A stretch of DNA of 64,000 nt from sequence record PZ386969.1. The stretch is one strand, 5' to 3'. The stretch comes from a phage. The notes under the pieces are model-generated. The model ran no database searches and was not told the DNA's origin. It saw only the letters and a list, made by a program, of their open reading frames with translations. Each line of letters starts with the position of its first letter. Position 1 is the first letter of the stretch. The position numbers were made by a program, and so were the translations under genes. Positions 3,279 through 45,935 of this stretch are shown here, piece by piece.

Positions 3279-4500
3279 AATGCCGACGGGTTATACGCCT
3301 CCGGCTGAATGGAAGTACCCGATTGACCTGGCTGTTGATTATCGCAAGCCTGAGAATCGCATGTACCTGCTCAAGGCTTGGGTGGAGGCGCTGTCCTACA
3401 CAGAAGAGCACAACCAGCAGATGCGTCTGATGGACTATGCGATCGAAGTCACTGAAGGCATCAGCCTCGAACAGAAAGTCGAGCGCAAGATCTGGATGGC
3501 ATTCCTGTGGGGTTGTTGCTATAACGCCGTCGGACCGTGGACGATCTACAGTGAGTTCCCTGTGCCGCCTCAGTCTAAGGAAGAGATGCAGCGCTTCTCT
3601 GATTGGTATAATCTGAACTTTGAACGCATGCGATTCGATACCGACTGTCGCTACCGCAAGTCCAAGATGATTCCGTGTGTTCAGTCCTATATTGACTGGC
3701 TGGCTGGCCGTACTCAATATGACGCTTTCCGTGGGATGTTGGTGTGCATCGATAAGACAGAACAATTCACCCAGCTGTGGGACACGGCGATGTCCTGGAA
3801 ATACTTCGGTCGCCTGAGCGCCTGGAACTTCCTGGAAGCCCTGAACATGGTCTTCGGGAACGAATACACCATTGACGTCCCTGGCTTCATGCTGCGTGAT
3901 CGTGATGGAAGCGAGTCCAACCGTAATGGCGCGGCGTTCTTGTCCAACCGTGACGATTGGGTGACTAAACACGGGAAGAAAAAGATCAACGGTTGTCCTA
4001 TCACGGATGAAGAGTGTGACATCCTTGAGGCCGACCTTGAGCAGGCGTTCCAGGATTGTGTGGCTGAGTTCGGGCACCTGACGTTCATCAACCGCCTGAA
4101 CTTTGAAACCTCCGGTGCTTGTTGGCTGAAGAAATTCTTCCGACTGAAGAATACCCGTTACATCGGGTGGGACGCAGAGCGTACCTGGGATGAGATAGAC
4201 TACATGGAACGCGTCTGGCCTGAATACTCCTGCGCAGCGCTCTGGGAAGCCCGTTCGCTCTGGCTGCCAGATACCCTGTTATGTGAAAAGGCTCCTGCAG
4301 GGCACGTTCCAGGCGTCCAGAAGTGGAAGATGCCTGTATTCTTTGAGACTGGTGTTCCTCTGCATATCTGGCACCTGCAAAAGGGTACGCGCTGGGAACC
4401 ATCCGAGGTATGTACGAACCTGAAGATGCCTGTGCGCAAGGTTGAGGACAAGCAGCCGCGCAAACATAGCGTCAACCTCATGACACTCTTGAAACGCTGA
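3262..4500 (+). CDS. Hypothetical protein (412 aa)
   Basis: Long ORF, start preceded by GAGGAAG; no family recognised by eye. Confidence 0.6.
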   Translation: MHHLSKMPTGYTPPAEWKYPIDLAVDYRKPENRMYLLKAWVEALSYTEEHNQQMRLMDYAIEVTEGISLEQKVERKIWMAFLWGCCYNAVGPWTIYSEFPVPPQSKEEMQRFSDWYNLNFERMRFDTDCRYRKSKMIPCVQSYIDWLAGRTQYDAFRGMLVCIDKTEQFTQLWDTAMSWKYFGRLSAWNFLEALNMVFGNEYTIDVPGFMLRDRDGSESNRNGAAFLSNRDDWVTKHGKKKINGCPITDEECDILEADLEQAFQDCVAEFGHLTFINRLNFETSGACWLKKFFRLKNTRYIGWDAERTWDEIDYMERVWPEYSCAALWEARSLWLPDTLLCEKAPAGHVPGVQKWKMPVFFETGVPLHIWHLQKGTRWEPSEVCTNLKMPVRKVEDKQPRKHSVNLMTLLKR

Positions 4501-6715: not shown

Positions 6716-7285
6716 ATGTCTCAATCTAAGGGTATCGCAACAGGTTGGATAGTTGGTTTGGCTTTGCTGGGTATAGTGATTCTCGGCATCAGTACAGTCA
6801 TCAGCTACTTCAACGACTTCAACCGCACTGAGCAGCAGGTCAAGAAGTTCAACAAAGACTCCGAGAACTACCTGAGCAACTACACGCTCAAAGTTCAGGA
6901 GACGGCGCAGATTCCTGACATGTATAAAGACGGCCTGAAGGAAGTGATCAAAGGCACGTTCGAAGGGCGTTATGGTGCTGATGGTTCCAAGGCCGTCATG
7001 CAGTGGATCCAGGAGCAGAATATTCAGTTCGATTCCAGCCTGTACAAAGAGATCCAGGTGGTGATCAGTTCTGGGCGTGATGAATTCCGCATCAGCCAGA
7101 CCAAGAAGCTGGATATCTGCACAATATACGAAACCAAGCTGGCTCAGTTCCCTGGTTCGTTGATTGCTGGCATGTTCGGCTACCCGCGCATCGACCTTGA
7201 CAAGACCTGCCAGGTGGTGAGTGATACCCGTACCCAGGCCGCGTTCGACGCTGGTATTCAGAAACCGATTAACTTCAAAGGCTGA
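6716..7285 (+). CDS. Membrane-anchored hypothetical protein
   Basis: Single N-terminal TM helix then soluble domain. Confidence 0.5.
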   Translation: MSQSKGIATGWIVGLALLGIVILGISTVISYFNDFNRTEQQVKKFNKDSENYLSNYTLKVQETAQIPDMYKDGLKEVIKGTFEGRYGADGSKAVMQWIQEQNIQFDSSLYKEIQVVISSGRDEFRISQTKKLDICTIYETKLAQFPGSLIAGMFGYPRIDLDKTCQVVSDTRTQAAFDAGIQKPINFKG

Positions 7286-7289
7286 TGTC

Positions 7290-7703
7290 ATGAGCGTGAA
7301 ACTCACTGAATCCCTGACACTGGACCAACAGCAGGCTCTGTTGGATGAAGTGGTGATCTCTGCTATCAAGCAAGGGATTATCAAAGACGACATGTTGATT
7401 GACCGCCCCGAGATGATCCATCATCTGGTGGTGTGCCTGGGTGAGGCCAGCAACCCTCGCAAGAAGATCGTGCTGTTTACTGATGGTGTGATCCTTCCGA
7501 GCGGGAAATGTGCGTTCTTGGATGTGGTTGAACATCCGAACACGAAAGGCAAAGAGGTCAAGACTTCTGTTCCGGTGACCCCATACACCGAGGGTGTTGA
7601 CCAGCTGTCTTGGTTTGAGACAATCAACACCATTTATGTGATGGCACCGGACGGTAAACCAGTTCGGGATCTACGAGGCGGCAAAGTAGAATCTGAAGAC
7701 TAA
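7290..7703 (+). CDS. Hypothetical protein
   Basis: ATG at 7290 (MSVKLTE) in frame with track ORF 7221, avoids overlap with previous gene. Confidence 0.45.
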   Translation: MSVKLTESLTLDQQQALLDEVVISAIKQGIIKDDMLIDRPEMIHHLVVCLGEASNPRKKIVLFTDGVILPSGKCAFLDVVEHPNTKGKEVKTSVPVTPYTEGVDQLSWFETINTIYVMAPDGKPVRDLRGGKVESED

Positions 7704-7709
7704 TCGTTC

Positions 7710-7735
7710 TTCAATAAAAGGGGATAGGGTATTAT
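7710..7735 (+). promoter_or_regulatory. Promoter-like motif TTCAATAAA-N11-TATTAT overlapping terminator hairpin
   Basis: TTCAAT 7710-7715, -10-like 7730-7735. Confidence 0.45.
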
Positions 7736-7751
7736 TGCTCTATCCCTTTTT
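7720..7751 (+). terminator. Rho-independent terminator
   Basis: Stem GGGATAG/CTATCCC with A-tract upstream and T-tract downstream. Confidence 0.55.
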
Positions 7752-7814
7752 CGTGGACAGGAACATGACAGACAAGCCAAGAAAGATGAAGAACAAACGC
7801 CGGAGCAAACGCTG

Positions 7815-8282
7815 ATGACTACCAAACCAACTTATGAAGAACTGGCGCAGACCGTTCTGACCTTCGACAGCACCCTGAAGAATCTGTACAAGGTGCTGGG
7901 AAAGAACCCGACTTCAGAGTCAGGAGAAACAGTTAATCTTCTGTTACTGCTGAACCCTCTGTGGGATATTGATGCCACTGTTGCTGCCACTGTTGCTGCC
8001 CTGAAAGATCCTGGGGAACAGGAACCGGAGCCAACCCCTGTATCCACTGGGATTCAGAAATACCTGGAGAACTTTGACGAGTACTCCTTCACCGATCTGC
8101 TCCTGCGTGATATGATCAACACAGAACGCCGTCGCCAGGGGAAGAACTGTCCTGTGGTCCAGTCTGATGAAGAAATCGAGCAGAGTGTTCGAGAAGATCT
8201 GAACAGCACCTACTCGCCGATCGATCTGGCTGTAATGATTGTTCAGGCACTGTCCTATGCTGCCAAGGGGGAAACGAAATGA
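7815..8282 (+). CDS. Hypothetical protein
   Basis: ORF after terminator; acidic protein. Confidence 0.5.
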   Translation: MTTKPTYEELAQTVLTFDSTLKNLYKVLGKNPTSESGETVNLLLLLNPLWDIDATVAATVAALKDPGEQEPEPTPVSTGIQKYLENFDEYSFTDLLLRDMINTERRRQGKNCPVVQSDEEIEQSVREDLNSTYSPIDLAVMIVQALSYAAKGETK

Positions 8283-16294: not shown

Positions 16295-16492
16295 ATGTAT
16301 AAGTTCAGAATTAACAGAGAACGTAATTCGTTCAAATTCGGTGTAATCGCTGGGGTGTGTTTGTTCCTGGCGCTCGAAAGCGTTATCGGCCTGCTTACAA
16401 CACCACAAATGCAGGTGACTCGTTACCTTCTTGCCATTATATTTTCTGTTGTCGGTTTACTCTGCTCCTATTTGGGGTGTGTGAAGAAATAA
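16295..16492 (+). CDS. Small membrane protein
   Basis: Strong RBS AGGAGG; two hydrophobic helices. Confidence 0.5.
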   Translation: MYKFRINRERNSFKFGVIAGVCLFLALESVIGLLTTPQMQVTRYLLAIIFSVVGLLCSYLGCVKK

Positions 16493-16534
16493 ACTGGCTA
16501 CACACAGCAATACTTTGATTTGAGAAACTACATC

Positions 16535-17023
16535 ATGATGCTGTTAATGAGCGTTCCACAGAACAAGATGACCCCTGCAACAGAGGGTAAGAATCACTTC
16601 AACATCTATAGCCGGAGCCAGACGGAACTCGGGCGCTTCCTCTCGCATTTTACCCATCATCCAATGACTACCCATGAACATGGTGTGTTTAACTCCATGG
16701 AGGGGTACTGGTATTGGCTGAAGTATAGGGATGACAACCTGCGCCTGCTCGACGGTTATGAGGCCAAGCAATATGGACAGGGATTGGCGGCTTCCCGCGT
16801 GATTGTCCTGGACCCGTCTACCGAAGAATTCAAGCGCGATATCCTATTTGCAACTAGTATGAAACTCCAGACAATGCCTGAACGTCTGAAGATCAGATTG
16901 GCGTACAGTCGCCTACCCCTGATCCATGCATATGTTCAGAACGGGAAATACAGTTTTCAAAACTCTATGGACTATATCATTGCCCACATTAATCGTCTCC
17001 GCATACAAGGAACTTTGAAATGA
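16535..17023 (+). CDS. NADAR (YbiA/DUF1768)-like protein
   Basis: Pattern FNIYSRS...THEHGVFNSMEGYWYWLK parallels remembered E. coli YbiA (NFYSTS...TSEHYFQAQKF); divergent. Confidence 0.45.
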   Translation: MMLLMSVPQNKMTPATEGKNHFNIYSRSQTELGRFLSHFTHHPMTTHEHGVFNSMEGYWYWLKYRDDNLRLLDGYEAKQYGQGLAASRVIVLDPSTEEFKRDILFATSMKLQTMPERLKIRLAYSRLPLIHAYVQNGKYSFQNSMDYIIAHINRLRIQGTLK

Positions 17024-17601
17024 AATTTCTACACACTATCGTCGACACTTCTTATGACTGCACTGCTCATACCCCAGACCGTTCGCCTGTGTTTGTTCTG
17101 AACAAACTAGGTGAAGAGATCTGTGAACTGTCTGATGTGTTTCATGGCATAGTATCTTCCGAGCCGTTGAATGGCGAAGTTGCTGATGTCATTATCTCTG
17201 CTATTGACCTTCTGTACGTCATGGATTATGACGACGTCCAAATGCGCGGCTCTCTGAACAAGGCCGAAATGATCGACTCTGTCATCAACCACATGGCGAC
17301 AGTGAACGATATTTCTTCTAATCTGTTGGAAGAAGACTGGTTCCGTCTGATTGATCGTGATCCTCAAAAGCATCTGAATCTTATCCATCATTATCATGGC
17401 CGGATTATCCGGTTGTGCAACCAGCCTTATCGCAGTCAAGACAGATTGGATCATCTTGTCAATGACCTAATCAAGCATGTTGCGCGCATGGGGTGTGGGG
17501 AAGGGGCGATCCGTGGATCCTCTTTGACGGCCACTCGCATTAAAGTGGAGCACGCTATTGAACACAAGGTTGAAAAGTGGCGTAGCAAATTTGGTCTATA
17601 A
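17020..17601 (+). CDS. MazG-like nucleotide pyrophosphohydrolase
   Basis: KLGEEICELSD ... EVADVIISAIDLLY resembles the MazG/HisE EExxE...D motifs. Confidence 0.5.
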   Translation: MKFLHTIVDTSYDCTAHTPDRSPVFVLNKLGEEICELSDVFHGIVSSEPLNGEVADVIISAIDLLYVMDYDDVQMRGSLNKAEMIDSVINHMATVNDISSNLLEEDWFRLIDRDPQKHLNLIHHYHGRIIRLCNQPYRSQDRLDHLVNDLIKHVARMGCGEGAIRGSSLTATRIKVEHAIEHKVEKWRSKFGL

Positions 17602-17650
17602 GCCGACCCCATACATAATCTTGTGTGTTTACCATTGACGGGATAGGCCG

Positions 17651-19561
17651 ATGTCCAACAAAATTGATATTGAACGCAAGTACAAGAAGCTCACTCACGT
17701 TGAGCATATCCTACTCCGCCCAGAGCGTCATCTGGGCAGTATTCGTTCGTCTGTGGGGACGGTGTGGGTGTATGACCCAACTAAGGACAAAGTCATCTTC
17801 CGTGACAACTTTGAGTACTCCCCCGCGCTGATCAAACAGTTTGATGAAATCATCACCAACTGTGTTGACCACAGCAAGACCCCTGAGGGCAAATCCCTGA
17901 CGGAAATCACCGTCACAGTTTCCCCTATGAACGGTCAAATCATCGTTGCTGACAACGGGGGTATCCCTGTGGTCAAGCATGGCGTCACCAACGAGTGGCT
18001 TCCTGAAATGTTGTTCGGCTCTCTATATGCGGGATCGAACTTCAACGACGAAGACGAAGAGTACAACAACCAGAAGTCCGGTGGTCAGAATGGCGAAGGG
18101 GCGTCCCTCGTCAACGTGTTCTCCAAATGGTTCCGCGTCACGACTAATGACGGCAAGAAGTCTTATACTCAGACGTTTGAAGACAACATGAGCAAGAAAT
18201 CTAACCCAGTCATCAGCAACGTGAACAGTCCTGGCACATCCATCGCCTGGATCCCTGACTATGCTCGTCTGGGCGTCAAAGGACTTGACCAGAACAACCT
18301 GCTGATGATCTATCGCCGCGCGTTTGAAGTGGCTGCGTGTAACCCGCGCCTGAAGATTGTTCTCAACGGGAAGCAAATCCGGATTGACCGCTTTGGCCAC
18401 TTCGTTGATTACTTCCATGCTGGCTCGGCTGTTGACGAAACCGGGGATTGGTCTGTTGCTGTAGCCCCTTCATCCGGTACGTTCATGCACGCATCATACG
18501 TGAACTCTATTGCCACCCACATCGGTGGTCCTCACGTTGATTATGTTGCTGACCAGATCGTGGCAGCGATTCGTCCCCAGCTGGTGAAGAAGTTCAAGAC
18601 CGAACTGAAGCCAGCAATGATCAAGAACCACATGTCCTTGTTCATCGCTGCCGACATCAACAACCCGCGCTTTGACAGCCAGACCAAGGAGCGCATGACC
18701 ACTCCTGTCAGCCAGTTCGGTACGTCGTACAAGCCCAGTGATAAACTGATCCGCAAGGCGCTTGAGTTCGTTACGGCTGGTCTGAGCAAAGAACTGGCTT
18801 CCCTGCGCAATGAGCAGGATGATGCTGAGTTTGAAAAGGCCAAGAAGGACATCAGCAAGCGGGATTATCGTGAGATTGAGAAGTATTACCCGGCGACCGC
18901 CCGTGGTGACCGCAGCGGATGCTCCCTGTTGCTGACAGAGGGTGATAGTGCCTCCAATCCTATCCTGAACGCCCGCGACACCAAGAAGATCGGGTTGTTC
19001 CCGCTTCGTGGTAAGTTCATCAACTGCCTGAACGCCCCGCGCTCAAAGGTGATGAACAATGAAGAGTTCAAGAACCTGTGTACGATCCATGGCGGCGCAG
19101 TGCCAGGCCAGCCCCTTGATATCACCCGTTACCCACAGACTGTTGTGGCTACCGATGCGGACGATGACGGCATCCACATCCGTGGGTTGTTGATCACCCT
19201 GTATTGCACCTACTGGCCGGAGTATGTCCGTCAGGGCAGGCTGAAGCTCCTGCGCACCCCTTACATGCGTGTGTGGTGTGGTAAGGTGATGCATGAGTTC
19301 ATGAACAACGCCGAGTATGAGGAGTTCCTGAAGACGCCTGATGCCAAGAAGATCACGAAGAAGAAATATCTGAAAGGTCTTGGTGGTAACAGCACTGAAG
19401 ACTTCAAACGTATTCTAAACAACCTAGATGCGTATACTACGACGGTCACGCTGGACGATGGCTACCAACAGTCACTGAAGAATGGCTTCGGTGATGAGGC
19501 TGCCGATTACCGTAAAACCTGGTTTAGCGATGTTTGCCTGTTTGAAACTGAGGATGAATAA
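17651..19561 (+). CDS. DNA topoisomerase II large subunit (T4 gp39-like)
   Basis: GHKL ATPase-type N-terminus (NCVDHS, DNGGIPV) and TOPRIM-like region (LLLTEGDSA). Confidence 0.9.
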   Translation: MSNKIDIERKYKKLTHVEHILLRPERHLGSIRSSVGTVWVYDPTKDKVIFRDNFEYSPALIKQFDEIITNCVDHSKTPEGKSLTEITVTVSPMNGQIIVADNGGIPVVKHGVTNEWLPEMLFGSLYAGSNFNDEDEEYNNQKSGGQNGEGASLVNVFSKWFRVTTNDGKKSYTQTFEDNMSKKSNPVISNVNSPGTSIAWIPDYARLGVKGLDQNNLLMIYRRAFEVAACNPRLKIVLNGKQIRIDRFGHFVDYFHAGSAVDETGDWSVAVAPSSGTFMHASYVNSIATHIGGPHVDYVADQIVAAIRPQLVKKFKTELKPAMIKNHMSLFIAADINNPRFDSQTKERMTTPVSQFGTSYKPSDKLIRKALEFVTAGLSKELASLRNEQDDAEFEKAKKDISKRDYREIEKYYPATARGDRSGCSLLLTEGDSASNPILNARDTKKIGLFPLRGKFINCLNAPRSKVMNNEEFKNLCTIHGGAVPGQPLDITRYPQTVVATDADDDGIHIRGLLITLYCTYWPEYVRQGRLKLLRTPYMRVWCGKVMHEFMNNAEYEEFLKTPDAKKITKKKYLKGLGGNSTEDFKRILNNLDAYTTTVTLDDGYQQSLKNGFGDEAADYRKTWFSDVCLFETEDE

Positions 19562-19562
19562 G

Positions 19563-20894
19563 ATGGTTGCTAAGAGCATTACTGTAACGGACTTTGTCAA
19601 CACTGACCATAAGCAGTTTTCTGTGGTCAACAGCATCCGTCAAATCCCTCAGCTGATCGACAGCCTCAAGCCAAGCCAGCGCAAGATCCTTTTCGCTGCT
19701 CTTGAGTACAACAAGGAGGAGATTGTTGACCGCCTTGGTATGTTCGCCGCCGCTCGCACCAACTACAAGTCTGGTGGTGAGAACATGAGCGGCACTATCG
19801 TGAACATGGCTCAGGGGTTCCCAGGCACGAACAACATCCCGTACTTTGACCGCGATGGCCAGTTTGGTTCTATCATGGGGCGTGATGCTTCATCTGCCCG
19901 ATACATATCCGTCGCTGTATCTGACGTTATCCGCAAGATCTTCCGCAAGGAGGATGAGGGTATTTTGGAATACAACTACCTTGGTGAAGAAAGACTGGAG
20001 CCGAAGTTCTTTCTGCCCATCCTACCCATGTTCCTGGTGAATGGGATCAATGGTATCGGCACCGGATATTCCACCGACACCCCGTGTCATTGCGTTAAGT
20101 CCGTGCTGAATGCCCTGAGAGCGCTTCTCCGTGGCGAAGACCCGAAAGACTTAAAACCGTACTGGAACGGCTTCAAAGGAGAGACAGGCTATACTGAGGA
20201 AGGAAGAGCATACAGTCGCGGCATCTTCCGTCGCGTCAATGCCACGACCCTGCATATCACCGAAGTCCCAGTGGGTTGGTTTGCCAAGACCTATGAGACC
20301 AAGGTGTTGCTGCCTCTGTACAAGGCAGGTATCCTCACCGAGTACGCCAACGACACGACGGAAGATGGCTGGGATATCACGGTTGTGTTTAAGCGCGGCG
20401 AACTGTCCAAGCTGGATGATAATCAGGTTGAGCAGATGTTCAAGTTGTATTCAGCCAACAAGCCTGTTTGGACGGCCTGGGATGAAGACGGGGTCATTCA
20501 TCGTTATTCTGGTTGGCGGGATATGCTGCTGCCGTTCTTCAATTATCGCCTGTCACGGTATGAAGACCGTCGCCAGTATCTGTTGAAGGACATGGCAGAC
20601 AGGATCCGCAAGCTGGGTGACCGGGCGGTGTTCATTGAATGGGCGACGCGTGTTGATCTCCGCCAAAAGATTGACGTGCTGAAGTCTCTGTTCATGCAGG
20701 ACTACCCGGACTTTGGTGGTGATCTTGACGAGTTGTTCAAGATGCCTCTGTCGTCTATTACTCTGGATGCCCGTGAGCGCCTACTCAAGCAGATTGAGAA
20801 CCTTGAAGCACAGCACAAGGAATTAAGTAAGAAAGAGGACATCGATCTTTACACTGAAGACCTTGATGACCTTGAAAAGGCTCTTGGCCTATAA
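19563..20894 (+). CDS. DNA topoisomerase II medium subunit (T4 gp52-like)
   Basis: Follows the large subunit; start re-set to ATG 19563 after its stop; topo IIA breakage-reunion-like region. Confidence 0.8.
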   Translation: MVAKSITVTDFVNTDHKQFSVVNSIRQIPQLIDSLKPSQRKILFAALEYNKEEIVDRLGMFAAARTNYKSGGENMSGTIVNMAQGFPGTNNIPYFDRDGQFGSIMGRDASSARYISVAVSDVIRKIFRKEDEGILEYNYLGEERLEPKFFLPILPMFLVNGINGIGTGYSTDTPCHCVKSVLNALRALLRGEDPKDLKPYWNGFKGETGYTEEGRAYSRGIFRRVNATTLHITEVPVGWFAKTYETKVLLPLYKAGILTEYANDTTEDGWDITVVFKRGELSKLDDNQVEQMFKLYSANKPVWTAWDEDGVIHRYSGWRDMLLPFFNYRLSRYEDRRQYLLKDMADRIRKLGDRAVFIEWATRVDLRQKIDVLKSLFMQDYPDFGGDLDELFKMPLSSITLDARERLLKQIENLEAQHKELSKKEDIDLYTEDLDDLEKALGL

Positions 20895-20935
20895 CATCGG
20901 AGGGGTTCGCCCCTCCTCACCTGGAGGGTTGTGCT

Positions 20936-21223
20936 ATGTTCTATCTCCGTTCTGCAGCACCTGTGGTATTCATCATTATCCTATTTGATTTCTTGGTTCC
21001 TCGCTTTATCAAAGAAGAGGTAGCGTTTGGTCTCTATGGTGAGACGGAAGACCCAGAGGTCGATGAATATTACCCAATGTGCGCCCTGAAAGATATCGAG
21101 GAAGGGGAAGATGTTGCAATGGTCGGCACTATGCGTTCTTTCAACCTGTTCGGGCTTGCACTCTTTCCGAAACTGGTTGGTGAACTGCGCCCCTACGATC
21201 CTGAAGCCACTGTAGATGGTTGA
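20936..21223 (+). CDS. Hypothetical protein
   Basis: ORF with N-terminal hydrophobic segment. Confidence 0.4.
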   Translation: MFYLRSAAPVVFIIILFDFLVPRFIKEEVAFGLYGETEDPEVDEYYPMCALKDIEEGEDVAMVGTMRSFNLFGLALFPKLVGELRPYDPEATVDG

Positions 21224-21258
21224 TCATAACATAGCTTCTGAGCCCTAAACTTCTGTCT

Positions 21259-21480
21259 ATGGATGATTCCTTGTATTTTCATTGTCCTAGGTGTGATATG
21301 CTTCATCTATATCACATTAAGGGCGAAACCCAAGGTCCGATGTGGTCGTGGAACAACAATGTTATTGAGCCTACGTTCACACCGAGCCTGCTGGTGAATG
21401 CATCTGATCCAGCATCACGTTGCCATCTGTTCCTGACCGACGGCAAATACAATTCCTCGGCGACTGTTTCCACGATCTGA
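21259..21480 (+). CDS. Hypothetical protein
   Basis: ORF only. Confidence 0.3.
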   Translation: MDDSLYFHCPRCDMLHLYHIKGETQGPMWSWNNNVIEPTFTPSLLVNASDPASRCHLFLTDGKYNSSATVSTI

Positions 21481-21539
21481 AGAACCAGACAGTGGGTATG
21501 GTCGACATCCATGAACCTGAAATTTGGATTGAATAGATT

Positions 21540-21950
21540 ATGAAATTACTGGGATATTTTCGTGAACTCCCAACGGGAACTGAAGGCAAGTTGTTCTCAC
21601 AGGTGAAGGGGGATGACATCGGCGATACGATGATTCCATTGTACACTCGTGAACTTCCTGCCGAAGGTGCCTGGGAGCGCCGTGTGGTCGCTGCCGCCAA
21701 CAAATATGGTGACGTGATTGTCGTTGCTGACCGTCACCACAGCCGATTCATGAACAGCCAGCTCAAGATCCTGAAAGAAGCAGGCGTCATTAAATCCACC
21801 CATACCCGCGAACAGGGCTTCATCGACAACCAGGGCAACTTCCTCACTCGTGAAGAGGCGTGCATCGTAGCCCGTGAAGCTGGACAGATTAATCAGGTGC
21901 GCCTGAAGACAACCCCTTTCCGAGAACTCTTTTCCGAAGACCTCTATTGA
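21540..21950 (+). CDS. Hypothetical protein
   Basis: ORF followed by hairpin GGCGGTA/TACCGCC. Confidence 0.45.
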   Translation: MKLLGYFRELPTGTEGKLFSQVKGDDIGDTMIPLYTRELPAEGAWERRVVAAANKYGDVIVVADRHHSRFMNSQLKILKEAGVIKSTHTREQGFIDNQGNFLTREEACIVAREAGQINQVRLKTTPFRELFSEDLY

Positions 21951-22000
21951 AGAAAAAGGCGGTATTATTACCGCCTCGACCTCTTGTTTGGTAACATCAA

Positions 22001-22243
22001 ATGAGCCCAGAATTTGAAAACCTGTTCGAGCGATGCTTCGAACCAGGTTCTGTGTCCGGTTACATGGACCGCCTTTGCACTGCCATTGTAATACGCCTTG
22101 CTGCCAAGGGTATCGTTGTCAACACCATTATCCGCAATGGGAACAACTTTATCATGCAGATGACTGATTATCACCACCGCACAGGCATCATCCAGGTGTC
22201 ATGTGTTGACAACAGCATTATTGAATGGAGACAGTACGCATGA
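22001..22243 (+). CDS. Hypothetical protein
   Basis: ORF; ATGA overlap with next gene. Confidence 0.4.
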   Translation: MSPEFENLFERCFEPGSVSGYMDRLCTAIVIRLAAKGIVVNTIIRNGNNFIMQMTDYHHRTGIIQVSCVDNSIIEWRQYA

Positions 22244-22839
22244 CAACTTATGTAATCAATGGCGGCGATCTACTGAAAGCCGCCTGTAGCTTCAATCTGA
22301 TCGACATCTTTGCCCACGGTGCCAACTGTTGGTCTACCATGGGCGCGGGTATTGCCCTGCACATCGGCAACAACTTCCCAGCGCTGCGCGAAGTCGATGC
22401 GAACGACCCTCGTGGTCCAGAGCAACGCCTGGGTGGCATGTCCTATGCATTTGACCACAGCACTGGTGTCTGGGGTGCGAACCTCTACACTCAGTTTTAT
22501 CCAGGTCCGAACGCTCGCATGCCGTCTGTCATCAGTTCTGTTCAGATGTTATTCGAGCAGGTTCACGAAATTGTGGAAGCAACTAAAGACGAAACTGTCT
22601 ATGTCGGCCTGCCTGCTATCGGCTGTGGTATTGGTGGCCTGAACCTCTACAGTGTAGTGCGCCATATCAATCGAATCTCTGAAAGCGTGTATGAAGAGAC
22701 CCGCCGTCGTGTCGTCCCAGTCTTCTATATCAGGGAAGGAGACGGATTCGATGATGATCTGATGGAACTTTCTCATCTGGGCACAGAAGGTATCATGATT
22801 GTCGAAGATGAGCAAGAAATCATCGACGAGGAGGGGTGA
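22240..22839 (+). CDS. Macro domain protein (ADP-ribose binding / hydrolase family)
   Basis: Macro-like motifs GDLLKAA..DIFAHGANCWSTMGAGIA and GLPAIGCGIGGL. Confidence 0.6.
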   Translation: MTTYVINGGDLLKAACSFNLIDIFAHGANCWSTMGAGIALHIGNNFPALREVDANDPRGPEQRLGGMSYAFDHSTGVWGANLYTQFYPGPNARMPSVISSVQMLFEQVHEIVEATKDETVYVGLPAIGCGIGGLNLYSVVRHINRISESVYEETRRRVVPVFYIREGDGFDDDLMELSHLGTEGIMIVEDEQEIIDEEG

Positions 22840-22842
22840 ATA

Positions 22843-23094
22843 ATGATATGTGCGTTTGATCAAGAATTTTATAAAAAGGTCAATATTCTAAAACTTGTCA
22901 TGTCTGGAACTAGTTCGAAAGAAGTATCAGAAATTTATTGTATTTCACAGGCCAGGGTGAGCCAGATTTTGAGGGAAACTATAGGGTTACTTTGCCCAGA
23001 GATAGAAATTAAGCGCGTCAACAAAAAGTTCATTGATGAAAATTATTATACAGTAAAAGCCAAAATAAAGTGTTGGGAGAATAAACATGTATAA
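22843..23094 (+). CDS. Small helix-turn-helix protein
   Basis: HTH-like segment SSKEVSEIYCISQARVSQILRE; sits in a locally AT-rich stretch. Confidence 0.4.
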   Translation: MICAFDQEFYKKVNILKLVMSGTSSKEVSEIYCISQARVSQILRETIGLLCPEIEIKRVNKKFIDENYYTVKAKIKCWENKHV

Positions 23095-41511: not shown

Positions 41512-42574
41512 GGTCCATTTGCTCCAGCATGTTAGCAGGCATAACAGTACCGTTAGAAACACCGAACATTTTCTTCACGTCATCGGCGAAGTTGACATTC
41601 TCCAGCAGCGGATACCAGAAATCATCACCCATCTGACGCTTCTGATATTTCTTTTCCTTCTCAGGATCGAAACCGCCCTTGGCTGTACGCACATACCAGC
41701 CGGAAGACGGCATATCAACATAACCCAGAGCACGAGCGATCTCAAGCAGGCCGCTCCAGCGATCAATACCACCGTTGTACAGTACCGTGACAGGGAGCTT
41801 GGCTTTTTCTTTGACATGGCGGCCTTTCATGATGCTTATGTTGAAGTTCCAGCCCAGCAGATCTTTGTCTTCCTTCACCTGAGAACGGGTGATAAACCAG
41901 ATCAAGTTGGAGGATAAGAAGCCCTGTTTGCCGCCTTTGATGTTAGGCTCGGCATATTGGTTGCCGATCTCATCGTAATAGGAGTTGATCCAAACACACA
42001 CGAGATTTTTGCTGTTGATTTCGGGAGTCATGACACGCCAGAAGCTGTTGAGGGCACGGGCGCGGGTCATGTCTTGAGTGTCGTTCCCTTTGATCGCATC
42101 TTCAACTTCCTTGGTGGAGGGAAGTTGGCTGATAGAGTCGATGAAGATTATAACATGGTCGCCTTTCTTGACTTCCTGTAGGATCTGTAGCAATCGGATC
42201 TTGGTCTGTTCAACGTTGTCGATCGGTACGTACAGGACGCGATCCATGTCAATGCCCATAGAGGTCCAGTAATCAGCGTTGGCACCCTTTTCTGAGTCCG
42301 CAAAGACGCAGATAGCATCAGGGAACTTGTCCATGTACGCCTTGACGTCCACCAGACCGAACATCGTTTTGAAGGTACGGGAATCACCCACCATCATCTT
42401 GATACCGGAGATCAGGCCGCCGTCAATACGCCCAGACCATGCGATGTCGATCAGGGGAATACCAGTAGAACAGATGATAGACGGTTCCAGAGCGTCTGAT
42501 TGGGACAGCACTGAAGCCTGGTCATCGTGTTTCTTAGCAACCTTCAGCATGCGGTCCATTAATGAACTGGCCAT
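41489..42574 (-). CDS. uvsX: UvsX recombinase (RecA-like)
   Basis: Extended by-eye similarity to remembered T4 UvsX across the RecA core (FIDSISQL, MTRA). Confidence 0.85.
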   Translation of the reverse strand: MASSLMDRMLKVAKKHDDQASVLSQSDALEPSIICSTGIPLIDIAWSGRIDGGLISGIKMMVGDSRTFKTMFGLVDVKAYMDKFPDAICVFADSEKGANADYWTSMGIDMDRVLYVPIDNVEQTKIRLLQILQEVKKGDHVIIFIDSISQLPSTKEVEDAIKGNDTQDMTRARALNSFWRVMTPEINSKNLVCVWINSYYDEIGNQYAEPNIKGGKQGFLSSNLIWFITRSQVKEDKDLLGWNFNISIMKGRHVKEKAKLPVTVLYNGGIDRWSGLLEIARALGYVDMPSSGWYVRTAKGGFDPEKEKKYQKRQMGDDFWYPLLENVNFADDVKKMFGVSNGTVMPANMLEQMDHVINTSE

Positions 42575-43101
42575 TTCACTTCCTCTTTGTTGTTAATCGT
42601 CGTTAGTAAGTCTACACCCATAACCTTCTGGGACAAAATGTTAACCGCCTCTTGGATGCTCTTCAGGGACATTATCTCAACAAGTGACGATGCGTCATTA
42701 TGCCGGTCGGTTAGGTACATATTGCGCAGATTGTTGTAGTTCGTGCGGTTGATGCACGCAGTGTTCAGTGCTATATTCAGGATATACATCATCTGTTCAA
42801 TGGTTATATCCTTTGGCATAGCGTGGATGTAATAGATCGATCCTTCAAAATAGACGTCTACCAGTTCATCTGGTATCTTGATACCACCACTGGCATACTC
42901 TTCGATCATTCTGAACAGAGACTCTGGTTGCTCGCTGGCGATCTTATGCGTAACAGTCGCCGAAAGACCGTCGCCCGGTTTAACAGGCCTGTTGTATTCA
43001 GTAAGGAATACATTATGGCCGCCGCCGATGATGTGCTCGGCGAATTTGGAGGATGCCTGAGCAGCGTTCTCCGCATGGTATGAAACGACGACTGTAAACA
43101 T
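42559..43101 (-). CDS. Hypothetical protein
   Basis: ORF between uvsX and the nucleotide-metabolism cluster. Confidence 0.45.
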   Translation of the reverse strand: MFTVVVSYHAENAAQASSKFAEHIIGGGHNVFLTEYNRPVKPGDGLSATVTHKIASEQPESLFRMIEEYASGGIKIPDELVDVYFEGSIYYIHAMPKDITIEQMMYILNIALNTACINRTNYNNLRNMYLTDRHNDASSLVEIMSLKSIQEAVNILSQKVMGVDLLTTINNKEEVKWPVH

Positions 43102-43655
43102 TAGAACTCCAGGGTCAGAGGGGTTTCTGCGGACTTGTCGTAATCCGCGCCACCAGAAGCACGCAGACGATTGCGATCGTTCTTGCGTTTGTGCGCCAGC
43201 ATGTAAGTCTCAATGTCGATCTCCATATAAGAACACGCAGACGACAGGAAGAACATGAGAGTCTCAACGCAAGGATCGTTCATGAATTGCCCAAGGCGGT
43301 ACGTAACATTGCGATGCCCTACAACACCCAAAGCAGATGGGGTGAATTCGCGATTACTGAGGACTTCAAATTCTTCTTCGATCTCACCTTTGGTTCGGTC
43401 CACAAGGATGAAGCACAACATGAAGTGTACCACGTCCACCAGTTCATAAACTGCGTTCGTATGGTCAAACCCGATGTCGTTGCCATAGACCTTCCAGTCA
43501 CGGGTGGTTTCATCAAGGAACTCTGCCCACTCACGATAGATGGAGTTGATGACTGCGTTCTGACTCCATACATTCTTCCACTCTTCCCCAAAATAGGCCA
43601 CGTTGGTGACCTTTTGGAGTTCGAGCAGGCTTTTGATATGTCCTGCTGTGATCAT
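43101..43655 (-). CDS. Nucleoside triphosphate pyrophosphohydrolase (T4 gp56 dCTPase/dUTPase-like)
   Basis: YELVDVVHFMLCFILV parallels remembered T4 gp56 FELVDIFHFVLNMFV. Confidence 0.5.
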   Translation of the reverse strand: MITAGHIKSLLELQKVTNVAYFGEEWKNVWSQNAVINSIYREWAEFLDETTRDWKVYGNDIGFDHTNAVYELVDVVHFMLCFILVDRTKGEIEEEFEVLSNREFTPSALGVVGHRNVTYRLGQFMNDPCVETLMFFLSSACSYMEIDIETYMLAHKRKNDRNRLRASGGADYDKSAETPLTLEF

Positions 43656-44221
43656 TTACGTTCTCCGTAGAATTTAACGAACGGTTCCCAACCATCAAAT
43701 GGATTGAGGAATTCGTAGTCCACTTTCATTTGGTCAATGAAAGCCTCTATATCGTCCTCTATGATACCAGCACGGTCGGCCTTTGAAATACGGGTGATAG
43801 GACATTTCGTACTCAGCGCCCATTCATATTCCTGAGGGGTACGCAGATCGCTCACGATATAATGGACGTGGGGGTTCTGCTCTACCAGAGGAAGCTGGAA
43901 GCGCTTGAAGAATGCCAGGAACAGATCGGGTTGTACGTAACGCAAGCCCGTATCGCTGCCTAGATGAAGCCAGATCTGCCGTGGAGTTAAGCCCTTGGGG
44001 TTATCAGGGTGCACGTAAGGAACGTCCTTCACGGCATCCTCTACCTCCGCTGGGAGCCATGGGTAGATGTAGTTGGCCACACGGCGCAGTTCATCTGAGA
44101 ACGAAAGGCGCTGGATGTCCATATCACCCTGTAGTTGGTGATAGCTGATGAGGGACTCCAAACAGAAGTCCTTACCGGAGCGTTTGCGCCCCGTAAAGAA
44201 TTCAAGATTTGGGTACATCAT
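43652..44221 (-). CDS. Deoxynucleoside monophosphate kinase (T4 gp1-like)
   Basis: FTGRKRSGKD and YIVSDLRTPQEYEWA match T4 gp1 motifs (LSGVKRSGKD, YIVPDTRQDHEMDAA). Confidence 0.6.
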   Translation of the reverse strand: MMYPNLEFFTGRKRSGKDFCLESLISYHQLQGDMDIQRLSFSDELRRVANYIYPWLPAEVEDAVKDVPYVHPDNPKGLTPRQIWLHLGSDTGLRYVQPDLFLAFFKRFQLPLVEQNPHVHYIVSDLRTPQEYEWALSTKCPITRISKADRAGIIEDDIEAFIDQMKVDYEFLNPFDGWEPFVKFYGERK

Positions 44222-45264
44222 ACTACACCTTCCAGGAACTTAGGATCAACGATCTTGCGGTCAACCGGAGAATGGGTGAGCGCGGTGTTCAAGCCATGAT
44301 CCTGAATCAGGTCCAGGTTAATGAGCTTTTCGTTCAGTTTGCAGTGCAGACAGTACGCCATCTGTACAATCAGGCCGCGATCCGCATCGTATTCCTTCAG
44401 GTGAGCAACCACAGTTTCCCACGGGCTACCGATATCACAGTGATGAAGCACACCAGTGAACAGATTGCGGATATGGTTCTGGTTGGTCACGTTCGTGAAG
44501 TGGATCATGGAGTTGATGAACCCAGCTTCTACTTTGGTGTCCTTCGTGATCTTGCCCAGCTGCTTCTGGCTGACTTCATTGTTGTAGTAATGAAGATTGT
44601 TAGAGAATAGCTTGTACTGACCGACATCAACATCTAACACCCGAGCAATCACTTCCTGAAGAATAGAGAACTCAATGAAGTTGATTGAACTCATCCCCCA
44701 CAGAACATCCTGTGAGCGATTGATGACCGTCAGGTTCAGACGACCTTCAACGATGGCGAACAACAGAGCCAGGTTACACACCATGTCCTTAGTCTTTGCT
44801 TCGCCGCTCTCGCTGAACTTCGCCAGACCAGCATCCGAATCTAGAGCCGGGTCATAGATGGTGAGGTACGCCTGACGAGTGTTTGGGTTCTTGCGCAGGC
44901 GGTTGATAACGCTATCCAGCTGGCCATGGGCGTACAGACGCGGACCATAAGCAGCTCGCCATGTTACCCCATCATCCGAAAAGTTAGCAGCGCGAGGCAA
45001 TACGCGTGACAGGAACTTTATGTCGTTGCGGCCTGACAACACCCAGAAGGTCTCGCCGATGGCAGCGATAGCCGATGAGTTGCGACCTTCAACGGAGAGC
45101 CAGCGGTCACGAATATCGGAAACAGTGATAGTCACACCATCAAGGAAGCGGGTGCTATCAGTATTGATTTCAGCATTACCAGGATCAGATTCGATCCCGA
45201 ATTCACGGATAGCCAAGACAGCCTGCTTCAGCATGTCATTGTTGTTAATTGCTTTGATTTCCAT
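44218..45264 (-). CDS. Pyrimidine deoxynucleotide hydroxymethylase (ThyA superfamily, T4 gp42-like)
   Basis: ThyA-fold motifs RQAYLTIYDP and NRSQDV; catalytic Cys in MVCN context as in T4 dCMP hydroxymethylase (FMCTN), not the canonical PCH. Confidence 0.65.
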   Translation of the reverse strand: MEIKAINNNDMLKQAVLAIREFGIESDPGNAEINTDSTRFLDGVTITVSDIRDRWLSVEGRNSSAIAAIGETFWVLSGRNDIKFLSRVLPRAANFSDDGVTWRAAYGPRLYAHGQLDSVINRLRKNPNTRQAYLTIYDPALDSDAGLAKFSESGEAKTKDMVCNLALLFAIVEGRLNLTVINRSQDVLWGMSSINFIEFSILQEVIARVLDVDVGQYKLFSNNLHYYNNEVSQKQLGKITKDTKVEAGFINSMIHFTNVTNQNHIRNLFTGVLHHCDIGSPWETVVAHLKEYDADRGLIVQMAYCLHCKLNEKLINLDLIQDHGLNTALTHSPVDRKIVDPKFLEGVV

Positions 45265-45935
45265 CAGATACTCCCAAAATCACGACAGAGGAATGCCATC
45301 ACAGCCTGGTCTACCGTTAGGCCGTGAGACTTCATCATACCCGCAGCCACCGTAGGGAACAAGTCTTTATGTCGTTGACGATGGTCATGAACTCTCTCCC
45401 ACTTCTCGACCACCAGACTTTCATTGAAGTCCACACCGCCGTTACGTGATTTAACGCGGGTGATACACGTTTCAAGAGGAGTGTCCATAAAGAGCACAAC
45501 CAATTCACGTGGTGGGCGTGTCAGACGGGGGATCCAAGAACTCAATAATGTGGATGGAATGATACCTTCGAAAATCACATCATATTTCAAGTATTCTGGT
45601 TGGTCAGCAATAGACAACGCGAACAACATCTGCTCAGTGTCCTTCAGGGAATCAACCCCCTTGGACTTCGACTTGTCATATTTACCGATACAGACCACGT
45701 TGAACGAAGGACAGACAGTCAGCATGACCTTGCCATTATGGGTCACGACATACGCCTGAGGATCCCTCTCCGCCAGCTGAGACGGCACAGTGGATTTACC
45801 GCTACCATTGGAGCCTTTGACGTAGTAGATTTGCCCTCGTGCTGGGTAGATCCCCTTTACGACGGGTGGTTTAAAGAATGTGTGGACGGGGCGCTTCATC
45901 AACCCCTTCAGGGAGTAGGACATAAACTGCTCCAA
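45264..45935 (-). CDS. P-loop kinase-like protein
   Basis: Walker A YVKGSNGSGKST; several aligned blocks with the 1799-2704 protein. Confidence 0.55.
   Translation of the reverse strand: MEQFMSYSLKGLMKRPVHTFFKPPVVKGIYPARGQIYYVKGSNGSGKSTVPSQLAERDPQAYVVTHNGKVMLTVCPSFNVVCIGKYDKSKSKGVDSLKDTEQMLFALSIADQPEYLKYDVIFEGIIPSTLLSSWIPRLTRPPRELVVLFMDTPLETCITRVKSRNGGVDFNESLVVEKWERVHDHRQRHKDLFPTVAAGMMKSHGLTVDQAVMAFLCRDFGSI

Follow-up and report, generated by a model that had tools for sequence, protein, structure and literature searches.

What do three small enzymes, all predicted to act on ADP-ribose or on nucleotides, do in the early region of a large tailed phage? The question is raised by positions 16535-22839 of sequence record PZ386969.1, of which a stretch of 64,000 nucleotides (the window) was analysed. 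The window is from an Agtrevirus (Ackermannviridae). A preliminary description had seen here a NADAR/YbiA-like protein, a MazG-like nucleoside triphosphate (NTP) pyrophosphohydrolase and a macrodomain protein, and had taken the three as a joint counter-measure against ADP-ribosylating or nucleotide-signalling host defences. The three open reading frames (ORFs) on the + strand are indeed present as described, the first two overlapping by four bases (ATGA) (Table 1). Our analysis suggests that the NADAR-like and macro proteins are two erasers of DNA ADP-ribosylation and that the third gene encodes an unrelated-looking nucleotide hydrolase whose role may lie in the deoxynucleoside triphosphate (dNTP) pool; we consider this the probable explanation. 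Of the proposed joint set, the macro and NADAR members are retained and the MazG-like member is not.

The anti-ADP-ribosylation reading of the NADAR-like and macro proteins is well supported by homology. By sequence comparison the macro protein is a clear homologue of Tk.4 from phage T4 (hhalign probability 99.9%, E = 1.2e-31; phmmer, 8e-14). Both proteins share the motifs HGxNC, MGxGxA, NLYTQ and GxGIG at an identity of about 28%; unlike T4 tk.4, the window gene is found near DexA and topoisomerase genes and not near tk. With the single sequence as query, the Pfam model Macro (PF01661) gave 16.1 bits at a gathering cut-off of 22, but many homologues carry PF01661. DarG models of PADLOC (5e-7) and NCBIfam (antitoxin_DarG, 4.7e-8) matched over the macro part only, the latter at model positions 6-135 of 338 and scoring 32.7 bits where the cut-off is 250. 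A profile of the family, compared with the PDB, retrieved the macrodomains of DarG as the best solved structures (5m3i, 1e-16; 5m31, 8e-16), then human TARG1 (about 4e-12), SCO6735 (5e3b) and BT1257 (about 1e-11) and Poa1p (2e-10). On these matches the protein is assigned to the DarG/TARG1 (ALC1-like) class of macrodomains. Of two candidate start codons, ATG 22240 is likelier than ATG 22225, because it is preceded by GGAG (22227-22230, 10-13 bases upstream) and gives an ATGA overlap with the stop of the DUF7234 ORF; most macro homologues have 199 residues.

DarG and TARG1 have a catalytic lysine (K80 and K84, respectively). The corresponding column of the window family holds an invariant glutamine, Gln90, within the motif NLYTQ that T4 Tk.4 shares in the hhalign alignment, and Asp125 of TARG1 is replaced by Gly. 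Glutamine is also found at this position in the ALC1-like macrodomains SCO6735 of Streptomyces coelicolor and BT1257 of Bacteroides, which differ from the window protein in being bacterial DNA-damage-regulated proteins and are only distantly similar in sequence, as the profile E values given above reflect; SCO6735 has moreover a longer mobile loop rich in Lys. NLYTQ of a family member aligns with ANMIGQ of SCO6735, so that Q90 corresponds to Gln85. This residue is essential in SCO6735, and a Q85A exchange abolishes activity; the enzyme removes ADP-ribose linked to thymidine in DNA and gives protection against DarT. Since SCO6735 is active with Gln85, a glutamine in place of the lysine is not the signature of a dead enzyme. 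By analogy, the macro protein is most likely a thymidine-ADP-ribose DNA glycohydrolase resembling the eraser half of a DarG. It was rejected as a DarG proper, for it has neither the catalytic lysine (K80) nor the C-terminal DarT-binding domain. The macro proteins of Ackermannviridae have in addition a conserved, strongly acidic C-terminal tail of about 45 amino acids (22705-22839, residues about 155-199) that is missing from T4 Tk.4 and from most other relatives; as its function, DarT binding or mimicry of DNA can only be guessed at.

The NADAR-like protein was far less accessible to sequence searches. As a single sequence it had no matches in Pfam, NCBIfam or PADLOC, and PF08719, the NADAR model of Pfam, did not match even at E <= 1; its homologues have no precomputed Pfam domain, and searches of PDB sequences and with a family profile recovered no NADAR. 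The fold search alone did. An AlphaFold (AF2) model built from an alignment of 26 sequences had a predicted local distance difference test score (pLDDT) of 92.6, and its three top matches in a Foldseek search of the PDB were YbiA of Escherichia coli (2b3w), a NADAR of Geobacter lovleyi that is a DarG1 (8bat) and a NADAR of Phytophthora (8bau), with template modelling (TM) scores of 0.48-0.58 and probabilities of 0.95-1.0; every other match had E > 3. Relatives of the protein match PF08010 (Phage_30_3), the match falling on the NADAR motif region, with 18-27 bits at a cut-off of 36, and phmmer searches with E. coli YbiA and T4 gp30.3 both matched members of the family within the same domain.

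According to the literature, the catalytic set of NADARs consists of a glutamate, a lysine (E43/K50 in PnNADAR, E36/K43 in AdfN of T4) and a residue in the last strand, where YbiA has Glu, DarG1 and other NADARs associated with DarT have Asp, and those of phages have His. In alignments with gp30.3 and YbiA made by hhalign and MAFFT, the motif LSxF, E56, K63, the motif AKxxG and H131 fall on the catalytic or motif positions of NADARs; in the hhalign alignment E56 pairs with E36 of gp30.3 and K63 with K43. E56 is invariant in the 26-sequence alignment. H131 is also invariant, is located in the last strand within LPLIHAYV and aligns with E125 of YbiA, one column off H123 of gp30.3. Because the fold matches and the positions of the catalytic Glu, Lys and His agree with gp30.3 and YbiA, the protein is most likely a NADAR of the phage type, divergent but with its predicted active site intact, and, by analogy to AdfN, a predicted guanine-ADP-ribose DNA glycohydrolase. 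It resembles T4 gp30.3 in fold, in LSxF, in a Glu followed seven residues later by Lys, in AKxxG and in the last-strand His; both are small phage proteins (about 150-160 amino acids) that stand alone. It differs in belonging to a large family of its own, phrog_652 (1838 clusters at 50% identity), in which the lysine is variable and which PF08010 and PF08719 miss. AdfN-Bas60 and AdfN-Bas32 were considered as members of this family and judged unlikely to belong to it, since both were found via conserved-domain matches that are absent from the family. A single chain of 1415 amino acids (P0253) has a Pfam NADAR domain (10-143), a NADAR-like domain of the phrog_652 type (550-694) and a DUF4326 domain (1185-1274), from which we conclude that the two NADAR types coexist and are probably not redundant. 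In the jumbo phage BF of Serratia (L012), the NADAR-like gene (3971-4456) is 2.6 kb away from a gene annotated as ARH-type ADP-ribosylglycohydrolase (7044-7973), a further neighbour concerned with ADP-ribose.

As to the profile check that the preliminary description had called for, none of the three single sequences reached the gathering score of a Pfam model, so that on a literal reading Pfam by itself would have refuted the domain assignments, and yet the deeper tests (fold search for NADAR, family profile for the macro protein, four-helix core for the MazG-like protein, see below) support all three assignments. Of the catalytic residues, those of the NADAR fold are present and that of the macro fold is exchanged as in an active enzyme.

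A functional connection of the two putative erasers is suggested by natural gene fusions. Among the 149 best representative relatives, 14 join a NADAR-like domain and a Tk.4-type macrodomain in one chain, whichever comes first, as detected with the macro profile of the window at E values down to 2e-37. In a scan of 60 relatives of the NADAR-like protein with more than one domain, the most frequent partner domains were DUF4326 (12), Macro (9), SLOG/YAcAr (6), DprA-type SLOG (5) and DUF488-N3a (4). The fusions are independent evidence for a shared process of the NADAR-like and macro proteins, whose genes are separated by 5 kb in the window. Examples are P0208 (at 1088-2020 of contig L009 and 561-1493 of contig L010), P0182, P0256 and P0191; some keep the Gln at the catalytic position, where P0256 carries a Lys, and P0191 has an additional DUF488-N3a/DUF4326 domain. 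On the two contigs, which are from the Tara Oceans marine metagenome, the P0208 gene adjoins genes for thymidine kinase and ribonucleotide reductase, a neighbourhood that echoes the one of tk and tk.4 in T4. For all three genes as one set there is no evidence.

DarTG systems are known from bacteria such as E. coli and Vibrio cholerae, and T4 is known to counteract them. Its gp30.3, or AdfN, frees DNA of ADP-ribose and enables T-even phages to multiply on hosts with DarTG1; the exchanges E36A and K43A weaken it. A 2025 preprint, which renames tk.4 as adfM, reports it as the one gene that T4 requires on a DarTG2 host; its knockout sensitises T4 to DarTG2. By analogy, the NADAR-like protein would hydrolytically release ADP-ribose from guanines that DarT1-type toxins have marked in phage DNA, with Glu56 and His131 surrounding the distal ribose and Lys63 contacting the diphosphate. 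The macro protein would take ADP-ribose off thymidine modified by DarT2-type toxins, and would do so with a Gln-based, water-activating mechanism like that of SCO6735 and not with the Lys mechanism of DarG. Together, both would keep the phage DNA replicable in hosts carrying either type of DarTG. The claim of the preliminary description that the two domains remove ADP-ribose is borne out in so far as Tk.4/AdfM homology, the NADAR fold with its Glu/Lys/His pattern and the natural fusions all point to it.

Several observations weigh against this explanation. The link to NADARs consists of a fold similarity of moderate degree (the TM scores given above) and of short motif alignments; the protein is not matched by PF08010 at gathering score, and hhalign aligned its family to T4 gp30.3 with a probability of 57% over 53 columns, there being no significant pairwise similarity. 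K63 is present in the window protein and in Ackermannviridae but replaced in distant members of the family. AdfN of T4 is reported to have worked in the T-even context only, unlike other phage NADARs, and its activity may therefore depend on DNA modification. For AdfM, the resistance to DarTG2 is a genetic result, and an enzymatic action behind it is putative. All three genes are core genes in Ackermannviridae, which is unusual for accessory anti-defence genes. In the literature searched, neither biochemical or genetic data on Ackermannviridae homologues of any of the three nor a mention of them was found; this includes a review on Ackermannviridae and two papers on thymidine hypermodification. 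With respect to the third gene, the phage already has a canonical dUTPase_2 enzyme adjoining its hydroxymethylase, and hhalign detected no similarity of the MazG-like family to T4 gp56 or to the dUTPase_2 protein of the window, so that paralogy with the canonical dUTPase cannot be argued.

The MazG-like protein has no match in Pfam (MazG; dUTPase_2, PF08761), NCBIfam or PADLOC. It matches phrog_1247 and, weakly, MazZ (7ody, E = 0.14-0.25). It has a four-helix core with the metal ligands EExxE and ExxD that is characteristic of the all-alpha NTP pyrophosphohydrolase superfamily, and the metal-binding residues are invariant in its family. It is an active-looking member of this superfamily (MazG, HisE, dimeric dUTPase) with the architecture of a dimeric dUTPase, as seen in the enzymes of Campylobacter jejuni (1w2y) and a staphylococcal phage (5myd), from which, as from MazG, it differs in the missing Pfam matches. 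Dimeric dUTPase-type enzymes cleave linear (d)NTPs and not cyclic signals. The MazG-like enzyme would thus be expected to cleave a linear (deoxy)nucleoside triphosphate, and the degradation of signalling nucleotides, which the preliminary description had assigned to it, is not supported. The gene is a core gene in a phage family with a 5-hydroxymethyldeoxyuridine (5-hmdU) pathway.

ViI-type phages first make DNA in which 5-hmdU wholly replaces thymidine, and phages with hydroxymethyluracil (hmU) in their DNA have been described as requiring dTTPase and dTMPase activities. Because the MazG-like gene is core in a family that replaces thymidine via the 5-hmdU pathway, a role in the nucleotide pool is at least as likely as one in anti-defence, which is possible but unsupported, and is favoured over the degradation of signalling nucleotides. 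A divergent enzyme of the dUTPase fold that is restricted to this family is therefore a reasonable candidate for the dTTPase or dTMPase step of hmU phages. Our leading guess is a curation of the dNTP pool for thymidine replacement, for example as a dTTPase.

Among 50,697 phage records, the macro type is present in 2659 from many phage groups, the NADAR-like type in 576 (Ackermannviridae, jumbo phages and Vibrio phages) and the MazG-like type in only 279, essentially Ackermannviridae. The alternative that survives best, although doubtful, is that the three genes form one anti-defence kit in which the NTP pyrophosphohydrolase degrades (p)ppGpp or another linear signalling or toxic nucleotide. 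The MazG-like gene is ATGA-coupled to the NADAR-like gene, which it also adjoins in those annotated genomes of Ackermannviridae that were inspected. The residues of the enzyme that bind metal do not vary, and Atd1 sets a precedent: this MazG-like enzyme from a phage removes (p)ppGpp and confers protection from TIR-STING toxicity. Atd1 has, however, no demonstrated relationship to the MazG-like protein, and the adjacency carries little weight because it is restricted to Ackermannviridae and because ATGA overlaps are common in this region.

It is less likely still that the NADAR-like and macro proteins serve the metabolism of the phage itself, be it by removal of ADP-ribose-1''-phosphate or O-acetyl-ADP-ribose, by reversal of an ADP-ribosylation written by phage enzymes or as YbiA-like N-glycosidases of nucleotide intermediates. 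The Tk.4 family is annotated as 'phosphatase (A1pp)' and its profile also matches Poa1p of yeast; YbiA is an N-glycosidase acting on riboflavin intermediates; and the genes are core genes amid those for replication and nucleotide metabolism. A fused homologue is found next to thymidine kinase and ribonucleotide reductase. Against this, T4 genetics tie both homologous families to resistance to DarTG1 and DarTG2, otherwise without a growth defect, the last-strand His is the signature of phage NADARs and not of YbiA, and the best matches of the macro protein in the PDB and among defence models are DarG.

We regard as improbable a variant that adds to a conserved dual eraser kit of the Ackermannviridae, made up of a NADAR clade undetected by current domain models and a Gln-type macrodomain and fused elsewhere to a 'pan-DarT' eraser, the translationally coupled dUTPase-like enzyme as a third, novel type of counter-defence part that acts on ADP-ribose or a defence-made nucleotide and not on the dNTP pool. 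That the NTPase acts after the erasers and cleaves the freed ADP-ribose, or products derived from NAD, to AMP and ribose-5-phosphate, as Nudix enzymes do elsewhere, is highly improbable: both erasers would release ADP-ribose and the NADAR-like gene is coupled to the NTPase gene, but no ADP-ribose hydrolase was among the structural neighbours found in the all-alpha NTP pyrophosphohydrolase superfamily, and the genes do not co-occur outside Ackermannviridae.

Two probable erasers and a nucleotide hydrolase with a possible role in the dNTP pool are what we favour for this locus. Anti-DarTG counter-defence of this kind is known already from AdfN and AdfM of T4, and the domain reading adds a further example and not a new type, since T4 genetics, in print and in preprint form, now back it. 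New is, to our knowledge of the searchable literature, the assignment of eraser functions to Ackermannviridae; new are also the recognition, based on a fold model, that phrog_652 is a NADAR clade escaping the models in current use, and the natural NADAR-macro fusions. If both erasers work as predicted, Ackermannviridae would resist both types of DarTG. The hosts in the records retrieved are Salmonella, Klebsiella, Escherichia, Shigella and Dickeya. Ackermannviridae are studied for therapy and biocontrol. The NADAR reading, if true, would annotate a large blank family of about 1800 clusters at 50% identity, the fusions would be candidates for broad ADP-ribosyl-DNA hydrolases, and the dUTPase-like enzyme could be the one that removes dTTP in the thymidine replacement of Ackermannviridae. 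In PHROGs, phrog_652 is listed as of unknown function, phrog_1247 as a MazG-like pyrophosphatase and phrog_335, the Tk.4 family, as 'phosphatase'.

Table 1 Features of the window discussed in the text. The topoisomerase II genes are intervening context outside the candidate set; the last five rows make up the thymidine hypermodification/5-hmdU cluster (42559-45935).
Feature	Position	Strand	Basis or remark
NADAR-like protein (predicted), 162 aa, phrog_652	16535-17023 (ATG); alternative TTG start 16520	+	Fold model, motif alignments
All-alpha NTP pyrophosphohydrolase (predicted), 193 aa, phrog_1247 'MazG-like'	17020-17601	+	Dimeric-dUTPase-like architecture
T4-type topoisomerase II genes	17651-20894 (large subunit 17651-19561; medium subunit probably 19563-20894)	+	PF00204, PF01751, PF00521, phrog_543/551, annotation of relatives
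DUF7234 small protein, 80 aa	22001-22243	+	PF23881 at 7.7e-41
Tk.4/AdfM-type macrodomain protein (predicted)	22240-22839	+	199 aa from ATG 22240; 204 aa from ATG 22225; phrog_335 at 7.6e-64
ACT_phage domain protein	42559-43101	-	Thymidine hypermodification/5-hmdU cluster
Canonical dimeric dUTPase	43101-43655	-	PF08761 at 1.8e-8
dNMP kinase	43652-44221	-	Thymidine replacement cluster
Thymidylate-synthase homologue, probably dUMP hydroxymethylase	44218-45264	-	Thymidine replacement cluster
5-hmdU DNA kinase	45264-45935	-	PF18748 at 1.7e-108

The region 16400-23000 is about 97-98% identical in DNA to Escherichia phage AV101, Enterobacter phage fGh-Ecl02 and other Agtrevirus phages and is recognisably related to 279 phage records. 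Annotated relatives keep the order rIIA, rIIB, small genes, histone-like protein, NADAR-like and MazG-like genes, large and then medium subunit of topoisomerase II, four small genes, Tk.4-like gene, a small gene, DexA, phosphoesterase and dCMP deaminase. By this order the three genes belong to a block of T4-like early/replication genes, which are without exception on the + strand. A scan for promoters and terminators gave background levels only and was uninformative on timing.

The four small conserved genes between topoisomerase II and the macro gene (20936-22243) encode a predicted membrane protein (phrog_2241), a DUF6527 zinc-ribbon protein, a phrog_839 protein ('Arn.3' in relatives) and the DUF7234 protein, whose gene is coupled in translation to the macro gene. 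At 17601-17651 the window is devoid of the HNH homing-endonuclease gene that separates topoisomerase II from the MazG-like gene in ChubbyThor and vB_CECAV_050, and at 19561-19563 of the 447-bp ORF that parts the two topoisomerase subunits in AV101. Because the HNH gene and the 447-bp ORF are present in some relatives and absent from others, the locus is a hot spot for the insertion of mobile genes in the genus.

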